64,000 bases of DNA from Eledone cirrhosa (lineage: Eukaryota). This document shows, in pieces, positions 6,899 to 46,640 of this stretch (within the stretch, counting starts at the first letter, position 1; every line of letters starts with the position of its first letter). Both the position numbers and the translations under genes were made by a program. The stretch is from positions 155,806,001 to 155,870,000 of the forward strand of contig OZ024742.1 in NCBI GenBank assembly GCA_964016885.1, written 5' to 3'. Under the pieces are notes generated by a model that searched no databases, was not told where the DNA came from, and was given only the letters and a program-made list of their open reading frames with translations.

Positions 6899-7042
6899 CT
6901 TCAGTGACTGGGGATTCCCATCTTTGTTTCTGTGCCTCTCCTTTGTTCTGTCCTACGCCGTTTTGTTTCAGAAACAAAATGGCGTAGGACAGAACAAAGG
7001 AGAGGCACAGAAACTAAGAAAGGAATCCCCAGTCACTGAAGA
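6898..7042. repeat. Fold-back inverted repeat, ~72-bp arms, apex at 6970
   Basis: tcttcagtgactggg...ttttgtttc A gaaacaaaa...cccagtcactgaaga. Confidence 0.95.
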
Positions 7043-9736: not shown

Positions 9737-9741
<5 letters not shown>

Positions 9742-9966
9742 AACCAGTAAGACCCCGACAGCTGAGCTCAAGCCGTTTCGACGGCTAATTCTGGACTAAA
9801 TTCTGGACGGCTAATTCTGGACTAGATTTAGTCCAGAATTAGCCGTCGAAACGGCTTGAGCTCAGCTGTCGGGGTCTTACTGGTTCCTATTACCTACTCT
9901 ACTACCTCAAGTATTGAGTACTTTGGTGCGTTATGGTCCACCTGGTTCCTTACCACATTTCCTTTG

Positions 9967-16225: not shown

Positions 16226-16530
16226 TCCGTTTACAATTGTTTCGCTACTCCTTATAATATTTCTGGATCAGATGACTATATATCATAATTGATCTGGTTC
16301 AGTTGAAAATAATTAACATATTTAAAAAAAACAGAGTGGCTCATCGGAACTCAAAGGAATATAAATTAAAATAATGTTACATAATATAATGTTCCATATA
16401 ATGTTCTAACTAACTCACCAATCTCTCCCCTCATATCTCCTCTACTATTTCGATCTCTCTCTTTAAGATTGGCTACTCTTGAACTGTGTATATATATATA
16501 TATAAATATATATAAATATATATATATATA

Positions 16531-18259
16531 TAACGAAGGAAATGTGGTAAGGAACCAGATGGACCATAACGCAACAAGTACTCAATACTTAGGGTAGTAC
16601 AGTGGGTAATAGGAACAAGTATAGCTCCGACTGCAGAGCTCCAGCCGTCCCGTCAGCTAATTCTGGACTAATCATCTCCTCTAACAACAACAAACTCAAC
16701 CCCTATGGAAGTAATAACCTAGACAGCTGTGGAGAGCCGACCATGAGGTGGAACTGTCCTGATAGATCTACGTGCCCCCTCAACAACAGATGCCGAGATC
16801 GTAATGTGATCTACCAGTGCAACGTGAGGACGGACAACTCCAACAAAGCTTCTATAGGATTAACCGCTTGTGACTTCAAGACCCGGCTCTACCTACACAG
16901 ACATACTTTCTGAAACCCGGCCCGGCGTCACGCCACTACAATTAGGGCCACATCTGGGACCTCAAAGATAATATTATAACCTACCATCTCACTTGGAGCT
17001 TAGTGTCCAGAGCTAACTCTCACACGGGAGGCCGCCGTCCGTGTAACTTAGGCTCGGAGGAAACATTACAAATGCTGTTTTCGAAGGACCAACACCTAAA
17101 CAAGAATGACGAACTGGTAACTGCATGCAAACACAGATTGCGTAGGACTTACCTCGCACTCAAACCCCATAATGACCCAGGAGGGGGGGGGGTAGACAAG
17201 GGCTGAAACACCCCACTTGCGGACTTTGTAAGGGGTAACCCCTGCTTACAAGTGTAGACGTAACTTTTTTTTTTAAATATCTTTTCCTCGATATTTCCTT
17301 CTCCCCCCTATCTCTTCCTAGTCCTTCCACCCCAGACTTTTTTTTTCACCTTTTTGCCCACCCGGATGCAGCCCATCGGTCTTCTGTAGCCTCAGTACCC
17401 AACCCCCCTTATTTTAAGATAGAATTGGACGATTACGCTTTTTATAGCAGATGTATAATCCCCAGATAATTGCTTTCTTTCTGGTTTCTGTTCCATTTCC
17501 GTGATTTCTAGATTTCTTAGTGGTATTTTTGCATTAGTATTCTTGTATTAGTATTTATGTATTAGCTTTCGGAATTAATATTTCGTATTAGTTTTTTAGT
17601 ATGTTTGTCCTCAATTTATTAAACTGTCATTGTAAGATAGCATAGGCTCATTACTACCTGCTATAGTAGTGGTGTTAGACGCCCTGTAAAGATGGTTTTA
17701 TTAAATTATTTCACTACAATCGCGTATTTAGTATTTTTATCCACCTATTAAACTTGTCTATAGCTTAGCAATACCAATGAGAGATTTGGTGATTGTGGGT
17801 ATGGTGTTGTAACCAGAAATTGTTTTTTAAATATTTTTTATATAATTATTTCCTCATTTTTATAATGGCTTTTTTGTTTACTCCCTTTCGATTTACCTAT
17901 TTTTCCAACTTCCCACCCCCCTCCGCTTCTCCATTACACTTTTTTCGACCTTCTATACACTATCCTTAGAATCAGCTGTATAGATTTCACTTTCAACGCA
18001 TGATTGGGTTTCCCCCACTGTCTCTTTGCTCTACCGGCAAGTTCAGCTACCCCTACCTTCCACTAAACGCTATGATAGAATCATCTGTCTTGACAACAAA
18101 TTTTTGACGAATCCTTTTGACAATTACTCTCTTCCCATATATGGAATTAGCCCCTCAGTAGTTCGGGTATTTATTTACCAGGCTAAAAATTCTTATTTAG
18201 TTCAGAATTAGCCGTCGAAACGGCTTGAGCTCTGCCGTCCCGTCGGGGTCATACTTATT

Positions 18260-18262
<3 letters not shown>
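16531..18262 (+). mobile_element. 5'-truncated Naiad-type PLE (family C) with inverted pLTR piece at 16531-16671
   Basis: WNCPDRSTCPLNNRC, NVIYQC..SIGLT..FKTR, ELVTACKH. 3' UTR is homologous to 39900-41150. Confidence 0.88.
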
Positions 18263-18313
<51 letters not shown>

Positions 18314-18396
18314 TAATTATATATATATATATATATAGTTATGGTTATATATATACATCTATAGTTATTAGGACCAAATTACCATTCCTAGATATA

Positions 18397-39813: not shown

Positions 39814-39878
<65 letters not shown>

Positions 39879-39899
39879 ATATATATATATATATATATA

Positions 39900-41395
39900 T
39901 AGGAACCAGTAAGACCCCGACGGCTGAGCTCAAGCCGTTTCGACGGCTAGTTCTGGACTAAACGAAAATGTATCCTGGTATTTAAATAGCCGATCTTCTC
40001 AAGGAGTCATTCCATATATGGTCAAAGTGATTGTCAAAAGTCAGTAGTAATTCTGTGATTGCAAATTAGTAGGGAGATAGTGGCTAAACCTGCCTGTAAG
40101 ACAAAGAGGGGCGGGGGTGGAGTAGACCCAATCAAGCGTTGGTAGTGCCGGCTACAGCTGGGCATGAGGTCAAAGAAGATACTGGGGAGGGGGAGGGGGA
40201 GGAAGTCGGAACGGTAGGTAGAACAATGAGGGGTAAAAATATATATGAAAGAAAAAATACTGAGAGTGAAGAAAAGCGAATAAGTGTAAAGAAAAAAGTA
40301 AAGCAAGTTCTACGACCTAACTCTCTAGCTATTGTTAGGCTAGATAAATAAATAAATAAATAAAGAAAGAAGTAAAGAAAGAAAGACAGAAATAACGAAA
40401 TAAGTAAATGAACTAGGTGGGACGGAATAGGCAAGGACCCTTTTAAGAGGTATAAGTACGTAAATCATACGGTGACAAGTCAACAAATGGGGCCAACATA
40501 CTAAAGAGACTACCACGAAATAAATAATAAAGGTTTCTATCCCGGGCGCAATGCCAGCAACCACCCAGTGCAGCAAAGTAAACTAGTACGAGATAATAAT
40601 TCTGAGTCCCGAAAAAAATATATACTAATGCTAACTCTAAAAGATCTTAAACAAGGTACATGAAAGTTCGTACGAAGTAAAGGTAGAATACGGAAAAATA
40701 AATTCAGAATCCACCCCGCCCAAAAGAAAAGCGAAGAAAGAAATACTGAAACGAGAAAATAAGGCATAAGTGCCACTAAGAAATATAGAAGGCACGGAAA
40801 ATAGTAGGAGCGGTCGGAAAAAGGGAGCAAGTATCCCGGGTCTAAAACGACTGCTATAAAAGGCGGAGTCCGCCAAATCTATCATAGACTAGGGGAGGGG
40901 GTGGGGGTACTAAGGCTACAAGGGGCCAAAGGGCAGCCTCGAGTGGGCGAGAAAAGACGCCGACAAAGAAAAAGAGCTGGGGTAGAAGGACTAAGGAGGG
41001 ATGGGGGAAAGGAAATAAAGGAAGCGATAAAAGAATAAAAAGATCTTACGTCTCCCTTGGCAAGCAGGGGTTACCAATTGCAAAATCGGCAAGTGGGGTG
41101 TTATAGCCCTAGTCTACCCCCCCCTCCCCGGTCATTATGGGGTTTGAGGGCGAGGTAAGTCCTACGCAATCTATGTTTACATGCAGTAACCAATTCATCT
41201 TTCTTGTTTAGGAGTTGGTCCGTCGAAAACAGCATTTGTAAAGTTTCCTCCGAGCATAAATTGCACGGACGGCGTCCTCCCGTGTAAGAATTGGCTCTGG
41301 ACAGTAATCTCCAAGTGAGATCATAGGTGATGTTGTTGTCCTTGAGGTCCCATATGTGGCCCGAAAGTGTAGTGGCGTGACGCCGGGCCGGATTT
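39900..41395 (-). mobile_element. Naiad-type PLE (family C) 3' portion
   Basis: Reverse-complement homology to 16915-18262. Confidence 0.88.
39913..40008 (-). ncRNA. Type I hammerhead ribozyme with U3-A8 core and long palindromic stem III
   Basis: gactcc TTGAGAA gatcggcta...tagccgtc GAAA cggc t tgagctca gccg TC ggggtc. Confidence 0.8.
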
Positions 41396-42780: not shown

Positions 42781-42783
<3 letters not shown>

Positions 42784-43070
42784 AAAAAAAGATGAAATCA
42801 AAAATGCAACTGGAGACTTGTTTTTTTTTAAAATATACATATTTGTTTGGTTCCTTTACCGCTTTCGCATTTCTTCTACTTTTTCAAAAGTAGAGTTGAG
42901 ATGGAGGGTCTGTGGTTTTTCTCACCTCTGAGAAAGACCACAAACCCTCCATCTCAACTCTACTTTTGAAAAGCAGAAGAACAGCGAAACCGGTAAAGGA
43001 ACCAAATAAATATATATATATTTGTTTAAATAAGACTCCAGTGCATTTTCGATTTCATCTTTTTTTTTTA
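42781..43070. repeat. Fold-back inverted repeat (~143-bp imperfect arms, loop 42925-42928)
   Basis: ...gtagagttgagatggaggg..tttctca cctc tgagaaa..ccctccatctcaactctac... Confidence 0.92.
42961..43000 (+). ncRNA. Minimal hammerhead motif with U3-A8 core (mirror copy at 42852-42892, minus strand)
   Basis: tactt TTGAAAA gc agaagaaca gc GAAA CCGG TA aagga. Confidence 0.6.
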
Positions 43071-43127
43071 ATACTTTCACTGATGTAGGGCACATCGGTT
43101 ATTTTTCATTTTGTAAAAAAGCCTCAC

Positions 43128-43202
<75 letters not shown>

Positions 43203-43402
43203 TTTATATGTAATAATCTCCCGTTTGGTTGAGATACAAATTTGGCTGTAGTGTGCTGCGCTTTCTAGCAAAAAGCCACCAGCCGTAAGCAACTAACCAC
43301 ATTCCTTCTAACCTGACCGCTGCTACATCACGATCCTTAGCAATTTTTGAATGTATTCTTGGCGCGATCACTTTGGAAAATGTATTGTCTAGATTTGAGC
43401 TA

Positions 43403-43479
43403 ACTTCCTGAAGAGTCCGGTGCTCTAGGTTCCGAAGCTATCGGATATCTTAAAATGCGGACGAAACCATGGTCGACGT
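43403..43479 (+). ncRNA. Type I hammerhead ribozyme
   Basis: acttc CTGAAGA gtccg..[tccga agcta tcgga]..cggac GAAA CCATGG TC gacgt. Confidence 0.85.
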
Positions 43480-44032
43480 AACTAAATGTATTCACTTTTC
43501 TCCTAGTCTATTTTACACCTAATTCTGTTTATATCTGGGCGATTACGCTGTCGAAATATTCGATAAATATTCCGTCGCAGTCGGCGCGAAGGGCTGGTTT
43601 CGGTTATTTGTTGGAGATTTCTTCATAGAAGCCTTATTCTTATAGCTTGGTCTATTCGATTTTTATATGGTTCATTGTGCTAATTGGGAGAGGAAATAGT
43701 ATATATTTTATCTGGTGATTCTATAGACACCTTTTATGATATATAGCTATGATTATTTAATTTATTAACTTTTCATTGAGCCACAAAGTGACCCGTTGCA
43801 AAACACGTATATATATCTATATATATGTAAACCTTTATACGTAATAATCTCCCGTTTGGTTGAGATACAAATTTGGCTTTAGTGTGCTGCGCATTCTAGC
43901 AAAAAGCCACAAGCCGTAAGCAACTAACCACATTTCTTCTAACCTGACCGATGCTACGTCACGATTCTTAGCCATTTTTGAATGTATTTTTGCGCGATCA
44001 CTTTTGAAAATTTATTGTCTAAATGTGAGCTA

Positions 44033-44109
44033 ACTTCCTGAAGAGTCCGGTGCTCTAGGTTCCGAAGCTATCGGATATCTTAAAATGCGGACGAAACCAT
44101 GGTCGAGGT
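44033..44109 (+). ncRNA. Type I hammerhead ribozyme
   Basis: acttc CTGAAGA gtccg...cggac GAAA CCATGG TC gaggt; canonical GUC site at 44102-44104. Confidence 0.9.
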
Positions 44110-44393
44110 AACTAAATGTGTTCACTTTTCTCCTAGTTTATTTTACACCTAATTCTGTTTAATTGACTGTATATCTGGTCGATTACGCTGTCGAAATATT
44201 CGATAAATATTCCGTCGCAGCCGGCGCGAAGGGCTGGTTTAGGTTATTTGTTGGAGATTTCTTCATAGAAGCCTTATTCTTATAGCTTGGTCTATTCAAT
44301 TTATTATATGGTTAATTGTGCTAATTGGGAGAGGAAATAGTATATATTTTACCTGGTGATTCTATAGACATGTTTTATGATAGACATGTTCTA

Positions 44394-44437
<44 letters not shown>

Positions 44438-44719
44438 TATCGAACAGCAGAAACGCTCTTTAATACCCAATGATTCCTTGCTGTATGAACATTATATACA
44501 GTGGATTGGTAGAAAAAATAGCCTAAAAAGTATATATAGTGGATGGGCTAGAAATAATGCCCTAATACACACAACTTATAAGCTCACCTAGGAAGCGAGC
44601 GCAAATATAAATAAAAGTTAGAGTTAATAACTCATACTGATAATCTGTAATTAACAAGCTCAAAGTATATATACTCCGTAATTAAGTGGTTTAACTCCTT
44701 TAATCCAAAAAAGCGAAGT

Positions 44720-46420
44720 TTACACAGTTTGACATTGTCGATTTTTACCCATCGATCTCAGAGACCCCGTTAAACAAAGCGTTGGACTTCGCTACCACTT
44801 ATACCACCGTCGATGGTTTAGACAGGGAAATCATCGCTCACTGCCGGAAAACCCTCCTCTTCCACGACGGAGTAGCCTGTGCAAAGATGTCTACATATTC
44901 AGACCTGTTCGACGCCTCCATGGGATCGTTTGACAGTGCTGACGTATGTGACTTGGTTGGCCTTTTTATCTTAGACATATTACGTGTTAGATTCCCGGAC
45001 TTCCACACGGTAATATACCGTGACGATGGACTGACTTTATCGAGCCATAAAAGTGGTCACGACCTCGACCGGTTTAAAAAAGACTTAGCTTCTACCTTCA
45101 ATGAGTTAGGCCTTAGGATAACAGTAGCCACCAACCTCTCTAGCGTGGATTTCTTAGACATTAATTTAGAACTTCGCACACACACCCACAGACACTTCCA
45201 TAAGCTAAACGAGAAACTCAATTACATTCACAAGGACTCATGCCACATCCCACTGCTTTTAAAAACTTCGTTAAGAATATCAGTACTAGAATATCAAACC
45301 TCTCCTCTAATAAGGCTATCTTTGAGAGGGCGGCACCCTACTATAACACGGCGTTGGCTAACAGCGGCTTCTCACAACCTATCACCTACTCTCCCACTAG
45401 CAACAACACCATTAAAAAAAGTATGCGCATCAATAGACAAACTATCTGGTTCTCTCCTCCCTTCTCACTCAACGTTAAAACCAATATAGGAAAATAATTC
45501 CTAGCCCTCTTAGATAGACACTTCCCCATGGGTCATAAATACCGCTCCATCTTTAACCGACACAAAGTTAAACTAGGATACTCCTGCGCTCAGAACATGA
45601 GGGCCCACATCACCAACAGCCCTATGAGCAACACCCCACCAGGGTGCTCTTGCCGTAAGCCAGAAGCTTGGCCCCTCCAACAACAATACAACACACCAGC
45701 TGTAATCTATGAAGCTGTGGTCACTTCCAACCGAACAAACGAATCACAGGAGGTCAAATCCTATGTGGGCATGGCGGAGGGCCAATTCAAGGAGCGTTTC
45801 CTGAACCACCAGTCTACCTTCAGATACCCGCACAGACGTTCATCCACGAAACTTGCAAGCCGCCTATGGTCCCTCAAGGACTTAAGTATAGGGTACTCCA
45901 TTCAATGGAAAGCCATCACTAAGTCCAAGCCATACGCAAGGGGAAACCGACGTGTGGCTTATGTATTGACGAACGAATAACTATCCTAAAGAGATTACGC
46001 AATAGTGATTGCCTAAAGACGAGGAGGGAATTTTTCACACGTTGTCCACACGTCACCAAACATCTATTACATAACTACAAGGCTCCGGACTGATTCTTTG
46101 TAATTTTATTTTAAATTTTTTATATTTTATTTTCAACCAAAAAACTTTCCTGACTTTCGCAATTATCTCCCTTACACCCCCCGCACGCAGTGTACTATTG
46201 CCTGTGTGAAGTAACCGAGTTTCTGCGCATGCGCGTTCGTACGGTTGTCCTTCCTGTTCCTATAACCATATACATCCCGAGCTGAAGATCCGCGAAGGTG
46301 AAACAATTGTTCTCGGAATGGTGAACAAACTGTTGCGTAACCACTTCTATCTAACTCGTCTCTTAGTCTGAGTGCTCTACCACTACGGATATTACCTTCC
46401 AGTGTTCCACCACTATATAT
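44720..46420 (+). mobile_element. 5'-truncated Naiad-type PLE (family D)
   Basis: FDIVDFYPSISE, MGSFDSA, YRDDGL, VDFLDI, CSCRKPEAWPL, VIYEA..YVGMAEGQFKERF. Confidence 0.92.
46277..46316 (+). ncRNA. Minimal type I hammerhead ribozyme
   Basis: ccgag CTGAAGA t cc gcgaa gg t GAAA CAATTG TT ctcgg. Confidence 0.85.
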
Positions 46421-46423
46421 ATT

Positions 46424-46640
46424 CCAGTTCCTCAGTGAAATAATAAACTAACCAGGAACTGGGCATATCAGAGTATTGACAATATTATACACCTCAACAA
46501 AATATGTACTTGTCTATACCATACTAATTCAAACTGCCACAAGAGGTCACAGCCAAAGATGGATGTCACTGAAATATATATAGCAGTAATAAACGAAGCT
46601 AAATTTTAAACATTTGACTTTTTATTTAACTTTATTTTAT
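46424..46640 (+). repeat. Solo copy of the 56404-56786 pLTR-like family, hammerhead core decayed (CACAAGA)
   Basis: Near-identical to 56625-56786. Confidence 0.8.

Follow-up and report, generated by a model that had tools for sequence, protein, structure and literature searches.

The window, a 64-kb stretch of DNA from Eledone cirrhosa, contains an aged insertion of 1.9 units from an ORF-less hammerhead family, and our results indicate that this family was probably moved in trans by PLE RT and endonuclease from a predicted circular RNA. By its sequence the family is best classed as a non-LTR retrozyme or a non-autonomous PLE, as it joins a hammerhead with a long stem II to a clear PLE insertion signature. 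It is dispersed and lacks an ORF, with a unit of about 630-660 nt and thousands of copies in a genome of 3.0 Gb.

An earlier note on this DNA had described a non-coding tandem dimer of a 630-nt unit. Two head-to-tail copies are indeed found on the plus strand, at 43196-43826 (631 nt) and 43827-44382 (556 nt), with 93% identity by BLAST when gaps are counted and 95.0% over 545 ungapped sites. According to BLAST and the family alignment, copy 1 is a full unit with a tail and an internal TA run, but copy 2 stops at the family main 3' end without a tail, and the array is 1.9 units long rather than a full dimer. The array is set between two target microsatellites, (TA)31 at the 5' junction (43134-43195) and (TA)18 at the 3' junction (44396-44432). 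The non-coding character is borne out by a longest stop-free frame of 77 aa and a longest ATG ORF of 46 aa, and the GC content of the dimer is 0.37, below 50%.

Mapping of family 3' ends placed the tail at 43746-43839 on the plus strand, where the main end of copy 1 lies at about 43745 and the second end about 13 nt inside the next unit. By analogy with PMC11167929, which describes the PLE tail as the interval between two internal RT start sites, these boundaries would represent such a pair of sites. The tail opens at the main end with a GCTC...GAGC stem (43746-43787) that is intact in 118 of 162 tails and is broken in copy 1 by a C>A change at 43749; this stem is a possible RT start signal. 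The neighbouring Hydra-type PLE family carries an ACTC...GAGT stem in its tail, and the overall similarity of the two tails is not significant. The internal TA run at the unit junction (43808-43826, plus strand) was recognised from the sequence and from family arm starts: in 25 of 215 arms the 5' end lies no more than 3 nt from the unit start, immediately behind this run, and the array at the locus starts there too. Additionally, a 16-nt stretch of the 3' terminus is duplicated (2.2 copies, 44364-44398, plus strand), possibly by re-priming during insertion.

Each copy contains CUGAAGA, a 48-nt stem II, GAAA, the palindrome ACCATGGT and GUC. Type I hammerhead 1 was placed at 43394-43497 (plus strand) by motif, folding and family alignment, with the 5' arm of stem I reaching 43407, CUGAAGA at 43408-43414, stem II at 43415-43462, GAAA at 43463-43466, the palindrome at 43466-43473 and the predicted cut after 43474. 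Type I hammerhead 2 (44024-44127, plus strand; motif and folding) is intact, with its core at 44038-44044, a predicted cut after 44104, and a stem I made up of a 5-bp proximal part and a distal helix. The GUC triplets end at 43474 and 44104, giving the 630-nt spacing that had been reported. The description of both hammerheads as canonical holds for the core and GUC of each copy but not for stem I of copy 1, where a G>C change at 43477, the third base 3' of the cut, was seen in only 2 of 126 units. This change leaves 2 contiguous stem I pairs in copy 1 versus 5 in copy 2, with predicted duplex energies of -1.3 and -8.4 kcal/mol, respectively, and in monomer and dimer folds alike base 43477 lies in the stem I helix closing the site at 43474. 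Stem III is palindromic, as the earlier note held, but its length is 8 nt rather than 6, and stem II is not branched: folding and the family alignment gave an unbranched arm of 5 bp, a large internal loop and an irregular helix of 9-10 bp.

The stretch from core to GUC had been called identical in both copies, and an 81-nt run (43396-43476) is without difference. A run of at least 81 identical nucleotides appeared somewhere in 30% of simulations; for the fixed stretch from core to cut the figure was 2.6%. The run is a weak sign of selection at the locus, being unremarkable in length and only mildly remarkable in position. No hammerhead matched Rfam at gathering scores over the 64-kb window, nor at E values up to 5 over 43100-46600.

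Folding predicts that stem III is poor as a hairpin (+2.9 kcal/mol) and favourable between copies (-11.2 kcal/mol), and that the double hammerhead lies 4.3 kcal/mol below two monomer hammerheads and 10 above the free fold. These energies are consistent with the dimer rule for hammerheads with a short stem III given in the consulted parts of PMC4209133, PMC3088659 and PMC7229834. Together with the presence of a core in each non-coding unit, they agree with the proposal that the element is of the retrozyme type, with a dimer-dependent type I hammerhead.

The locus itself is a poor candidate for activity, because the two copies have diverged by 5% and the cut required for monomer release is affected by a rare stem I lesion in copy 1. 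Across 53 family arrays the median difference between copies is 2.9% (quartiles 1.4-4.4%), and each locus copy differs from the majority of its own subfamily by 18 substitutions; on this measure the insertion is older than the upper quartile of arrays and looks like an ordinary decayed copy. These results do not uphold the view that the locus is active. A cut at 44104 would be plausible and one at 43474 likely impaired, and the folding models make it unlikely that a 630-nt monomer is released efficiently at this locus. Of the 14 arms that carry more than one hammerhead, both cores and at least 3 stem I pairs are retained in 7, and three of these (L090, C1:375861929-375863130, minus strand; L091, C2:4513125-4514314, plus strand; and L139, C4:231181353-231182583, minus strand) also keep the 5-bp stem II twice; the locus is not among them.

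Exact patterns matched the genome 345 times for strict hammerheads, 1,698 times for tails, 3,113 times for main ends and 2,499 times for relaxed hammerhead cores, a few of the last stemming from a cousin family, and each of the four reversed-pattern controls gave 0 matches. A first look yielded 3,152 candidates for the locus unit and 4,741 for a sister subfamily (79% identical), of which 40 each were scored. We analysed 150 loci, a biased sample composed of the 30 best matches to the locus unit, the 30 best to the sister subfamily, 60 chosen by hand among the first 100 matches to the hammerhead pattern (one, L081, without a family copy) and the first 30 C1 tail matches; they provided 147 arrays and 215 arms clear of locus edges. 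A further 20 more divergent hammerhead loci were examined apart from these. Neither viral_contigs nor metagenome_contigs contained a match to the exact hammerhead pattern, and contig runs X1-X3 (one sample, type unrecorded) contained family variation only, with no bearing on expression. The family was not described in the literature searched; the supplements of the preprint 10.64898/2026.07.22.740005 might list similar families. At one locus, L006 (C3:300628266-300629391), the pair of inverted arms match perfectly over 430 nt and have 5 private changes in common, which suggests a recent insertion or conversion, and the family may have been active recently.

The 3' ends of the 215 arms fall at two fixed sites in 201 cases: 112 at the main end, about 280 nt past the predicted cut, and 89 at the tail end, about 90-100 nt beyond the main end (the other 14 end elsewhere). 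(TA)n follows directly after 98 of the 112 main ends. The 147 arrays comprise 68 with an inverted arm, 46 that are tandem only and 33 single copies; all 68 inverted arrays run minus-then-plus, and 59 of them pair one main end with one tail end. The 5' ends are scattered by variable truncation, apart from a single cluster at the internal TA run. Two fixed 3' ends, (TA)n and inverted, 5'-truncated arms constitute the full PLE insertion signature.

PMC8557442 describes Hydra and Naiad PLEs as targeting (TA)n and forming partial tandems, with an inverted copy truncated at its 5' end and a tail that is optional. Furthermore, the neighbouring Hydra-type family shows the same two-end pattern over 30 loci (8 main, 14 tail and 8 other or missing ends). 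Because the arrays match the anatomy given in PMC8557442 and PMC11167929, and because the Hydra-type neighbour shares these ends, we infer that the family was mobilised by PLE proteins. A PLE protein would nick (TA)n, and the RT would then very likely start inside the RNA, about 280 and about 370 nt downstream of the cut, with one start per arm giving the pairs of main and tail ends.

The nature of the template is less clear-cut. No peak of 5' ends was observed at the predicted cut: 159 of the 215 arms cross it and just 3 start within 5 nt of it, so the main template was not the cleaved linear monomer. On such a monomer, which would contain both RT starts, cDNAs would end at the cut. As a cDNA pile-up there is absent, the templates were either circles or uncleaved read-through RNA. 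The poor stem III of a lone unit predicts that cleavage needs two hammerheads per transcript, so that two-hammerhead arrays would be the only sources and the monomer circle would be shielded from recutting. The freed monomer would be ligated to a circle, and we lean towards the idea that an RT going round it produced arms longer than the unit across the cut site; 38 arms are 800 nt or longer.

The strongest alternative, which we consider possible though less probable, is that the same PLE-mobilised family was copied from uncleaved linear read-through RNA with no circle formed, the hammerhead trimming the RNA or acting late together with protein. The two ends and the inversions fit this explanation, and cut-crossing arms fit uncleaved linear RNA equally well. 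PMC11167929, in the part consulted, reports that the anole PLE needs no cleavage in vitro, that unprocessed RNA is the main substrate and that the ribozyme is protein-assisted. Only 1 of 9 predicted Xenopus dimers was cleaved in vitro according to 10.64898/2026.07.22.740005. Two or more complete hammerheads are present in only 14 of the 215 arms. The predicted 630-nt circle, folded from one decayed copy, is not unusually structured, with 57% of its bases paired and a z score of +0.26 against 40 dinucleotide shuffles. On linear RNA, however, arrays could grow only through template jumping; the lineage nevertheless persisted over at least 21% divergence, and one arm carries four hammerheads. Strict conservation of the core and palindrome also implies a function that cutting of the template would seem to oppose. 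Finally, inherited differences between upstream and downstream copies were absent from 65 neighbour pairs (86 of the same versus 143 of opposite polarity, with no same-polarity excess), in a weak test, since three-copy arrays raise the count of opposite polarity and young linear sources would produce the same outcome. Circular templates are favoured over linear RNA because the ribozyme is kept in a non-coding unit, because arrays exceed one unit and because inherited copy differences are lacking.

Conservation of the ribozyme was examined in 126 near-full units, 119 of which fell into seven subfamilies of at least 3 members that are up to 20.7% apart. Among the seven subfamily majorities, 0 of the 22 positions in the core, palindrome and first pairs vary, compared with 25.5% of all columns (P 0.0015). 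Tolerant positions do vary between subfamilies, namely N7 (A/U) and H17 (A/C), and both switches are allowed by established hammerhead rules. GUA or GUC is kept in 92 of 97 copies that were not chosen via the hammerhead pattern. In 34 diverse copies two-sided changes occur in 12 of 26 pairs, including 7 in the distal arm of stem II, and 84.9% of alignment cells pair under the drawn structure versus 27-48% in slid controls; as the sequences are related and the structure was drawn from the same alignment, these counts lend support and do not amount to a probability. The lower frequency of post-insertion changes in the core (37 of 1,752, versus 1,338 of 46,453) was given no weight, since subfamily heterogeneity inflates the background. 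Overall it is highly probable that the source lineages had a working hammerhead.

For PLE hammerheads, PMC4209133 gives a helix II of 7-8 bp. Other hammerhead families in the genome have 25-36 nt between core halves, and the account available from PMC6155905 gives an elongated helix III and no long stem II. Long arms are not without precedent, given the helix II length in PMC4209133 and the Naiad 'half cores' that PMC8557442 places 35-50 nt apart. As the 48-nt stem II was missed by Rfam, such ribozymes are probably undercounted. A pyrimidine tract ending in AG lies just past stem I (43496-43506 and 44126-44136), is kept in the sister subfamily and could be a putative 3' splice site; 5 of the 215 arms start within 5 nt of it. 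PLE pLTRs often contain an intron.

In a further reading, which is quite improbable, ORF-bearing copies of an autonomous PLE escaped the search; the unit would be the pLTR or 3' end of that PLE, and the arrays its 5'-truncated products. The architecture is that of a PLE end, and the scored candidates are a small fraction (40 of 3,152 and 40 of 4,741) of those seen at first look. The sequence upstream of full units, however, is another unit copy or (TA)n and not an ORF, and the end-to-start junction is identical in subfamilies 17-21% apart. The earlier note had asked whether the unit is attached to a PLE ORF elsewhere, and the sampled loci showed no such junction: only 1 of 123 family hammerhead matches (overlapping loci being counted repeatedly) had a piece of PLE ORF on the same strand within 900 nt upstream, where a partial endonuclease piece precedes a truncated arm, and an adjoining ORF was present at 0 of 17 divergent hammerhead loci.

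Comparisons with candidate helper PLEs identified no partner. A tblastx search of the unit against 30 Hydra-type loci gave no match below E 0.1, and when its end and tail were compared with those of two Neptune-like families, one Hydra-type family and three further families with hammerheads, none of the 18 comparisons was significant after correction (best p 0.037, uncorrected); the labels Hydra-type and Neptune-like are based on linker motifs in PMC8557442, not on a tree. A family profile run over all fetched DNA gave 49 weak matches, all to family pieces, and termini shared with an autonomous family were absent from about 1 Mb sampled of the 3-Gb genome. Both Hydra-type and Neptune-like PLEs in the genome end in (TA)n. 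Pfam recognised none of five ORF pieces from nearby PLEs.

A Hydra-type PLE, 5'-truncated and broken, lies at 44673-46420 (plus strand) and retains an RT, a C-terminal GIY-YIG, a CxCX5C linker and its own short hammerhead core at 46282; 57,960 candidates for its family were counted in the genome, and the 150 that were scored include open frames of up to 651 aa. The dimer and this fragment were rejected as parts of one element, as they have no DNA similarity and the fragment starts on the far side of (TA)n, about 275 nt downstream of the dimer.

It is very improbable that a solo unit was inserted and then duplicated locally much later in a satellite-like manner. Some arrays do look like this: L015/L016 are 100% alike with 8 private changes in common, and L018/L019 are 99.4% alike with 10. 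The copies at the locus, in contrast, share 1 locus-private substitution versus 6 and 10 of their own, which argues that they were doubled at or near insertion, and copy 2 stops exactly at the main end, like 112 arms. The objection that the dimer is a duplicated solo pLTR fails on this single shared change and on the ORF counts at sampled loci given above. Duplication very soon after insertion at the locus is possible. A viroid-like circular replicon was rejected, as the minus strand of the dimer has no CUGANGA core, Rfam finds no ribozyme on either strand (43100-46600) and pairing is not in excess.

Similar elements have been described in other animals. The family shares with the metazoan non-LTR retrozymes of coral, mussel and axolotl (PMC7229834, 10.64898/2026.07.22.740005) a type I hammerhead in head-to-tail non-coding units, a GC content below 50% (here 37%), a short palindromic stem III fit for cleavage as a dimer, and PLEs in the same genome. 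A type I hammerhead core, by motif, is present in each unit, and by the same measure the locus array holds two, that of copy 1 with the stem I lesion, as do the 14 arms mentioned above. In contrast to these retrozymes, the family has a 48-nt stem II with an internal loop and occurs mostly as dispersed insertions of 1-2 units with inverted arms, not as long arrays. Its unit of 630-660 nt also exceeds the 170-400 nt of the invertebrate cases. The locus had been called unusually large, which is true only against those examples from PMC7229834: the unit falls outside the 150-450 bp given there and inside the 51-972 bp of the preprint 10.64898/2026.07.22.740005. Furthermore, PMC7229834 describes its circles as 'highly self-paired', as a descriptive trait that does not appear as a criterion in the portion of the preprint consulted, whereas the predicted 630-nt monomer of this family would not be highly paired.

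The Hydra-clade PLEs of PMC8557442 resemble the family in (TA)n, partial tandems, an inverted 5'-truncated arm, an optional tail and a hammerhead upstream of the 3' end. The family differs from them in that it lacks an RT or GIY-YIG ORF, has a tail of about 90-100 nt versus 30-40, places its cut about 280 nt from the main end and does not significantly resemble the tested autonomous families in DNA sequence. The non-autonomous Chlamys PLEs in the same source, e.g. MRC1, are likewise non-coding and form pLTR-like head-to-tail units; they generally share 3' ends with autonomous families, whereas no partner was found here, and most Chlamys lack canonical hammerheads, whereas the hammerhead of this family is strictly conserved. 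Similarly, the PAc Poseidon element of the green anole (PMC11167929) has two internal RT starts bounding the tail and AT-rich targets, but it is autonomous, with a hammerhead overlapping the start of its ORF.

Several other repeats were observed in the window and the sampled loci. A short insertion of another repeat family with two inverted arms (about 149 and 205 nt) occupies 42781-43133 in the same (TA)n tract as the dimer, and this repeat is also present in L095, L074, L015, L166 and L144. Type I hammerhead motifs of other repeat families lie at 7036+, 8394-/10282+, 13639-, 15407+, 22687-, 25197+ and 63968+; several have 30-36 nt between core halves and a palindromic stem III, and none reaches the Rfam gathering score. 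A short palindromic repeat recurs in (TA)n tracts at 9737-9890, 16489-16671, 18195-18326 and 39839-39962. At L074:2450-3140 an inverted two-armed insertion carries another hammerhead with a long-hairpin stem II. The cousin family (L201-L220, e.g. C3:283379398; 546 candidates) has the palindrome ACCATGGT again with a different long stem II, and its shared stretch extends up to about 500 nt with no linked ORF seen. It was rejected as an ORF source, since of 20 loci only L218 had PLE ORF pieces, at least 500 nt outside that stretch.

In animals the link between retrozymes and PLEs has so far consisted of co-occurrence and pLTR similarity, and PMC7229834 and 10.64898/2026.07.22.740005 leave the mechanism of mobilisation open. 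In the present family the integration signature of PLEs is seen directly on a hammerhead unit without an ORF, across the 147 arrays sampled. The ribozyme is strictly conserved in the absence of protein coding, even though PLE insertion in vitro did without a ribozyme (PMC11167929). We tentatively raise the idea, which we regard as doubtful, that an ORF-less ribozyme-circle lineage has exploited PLE RT through at least 21-25% divergence while keeping just the hammerhead, with its long and covarying stem II arm, and the two-site RT start region. If this is true, the arrays would directly show that internal-initiation TPRT by PLEs copies retrozyme circles, and the stem II arm would represent a new module, for protein docking or regulation, through which cleavage depends on the helper protein. 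Thus the family offers a clean substrate for asking what PLE hammerheads do, and whether they serve a circle or a linear template.
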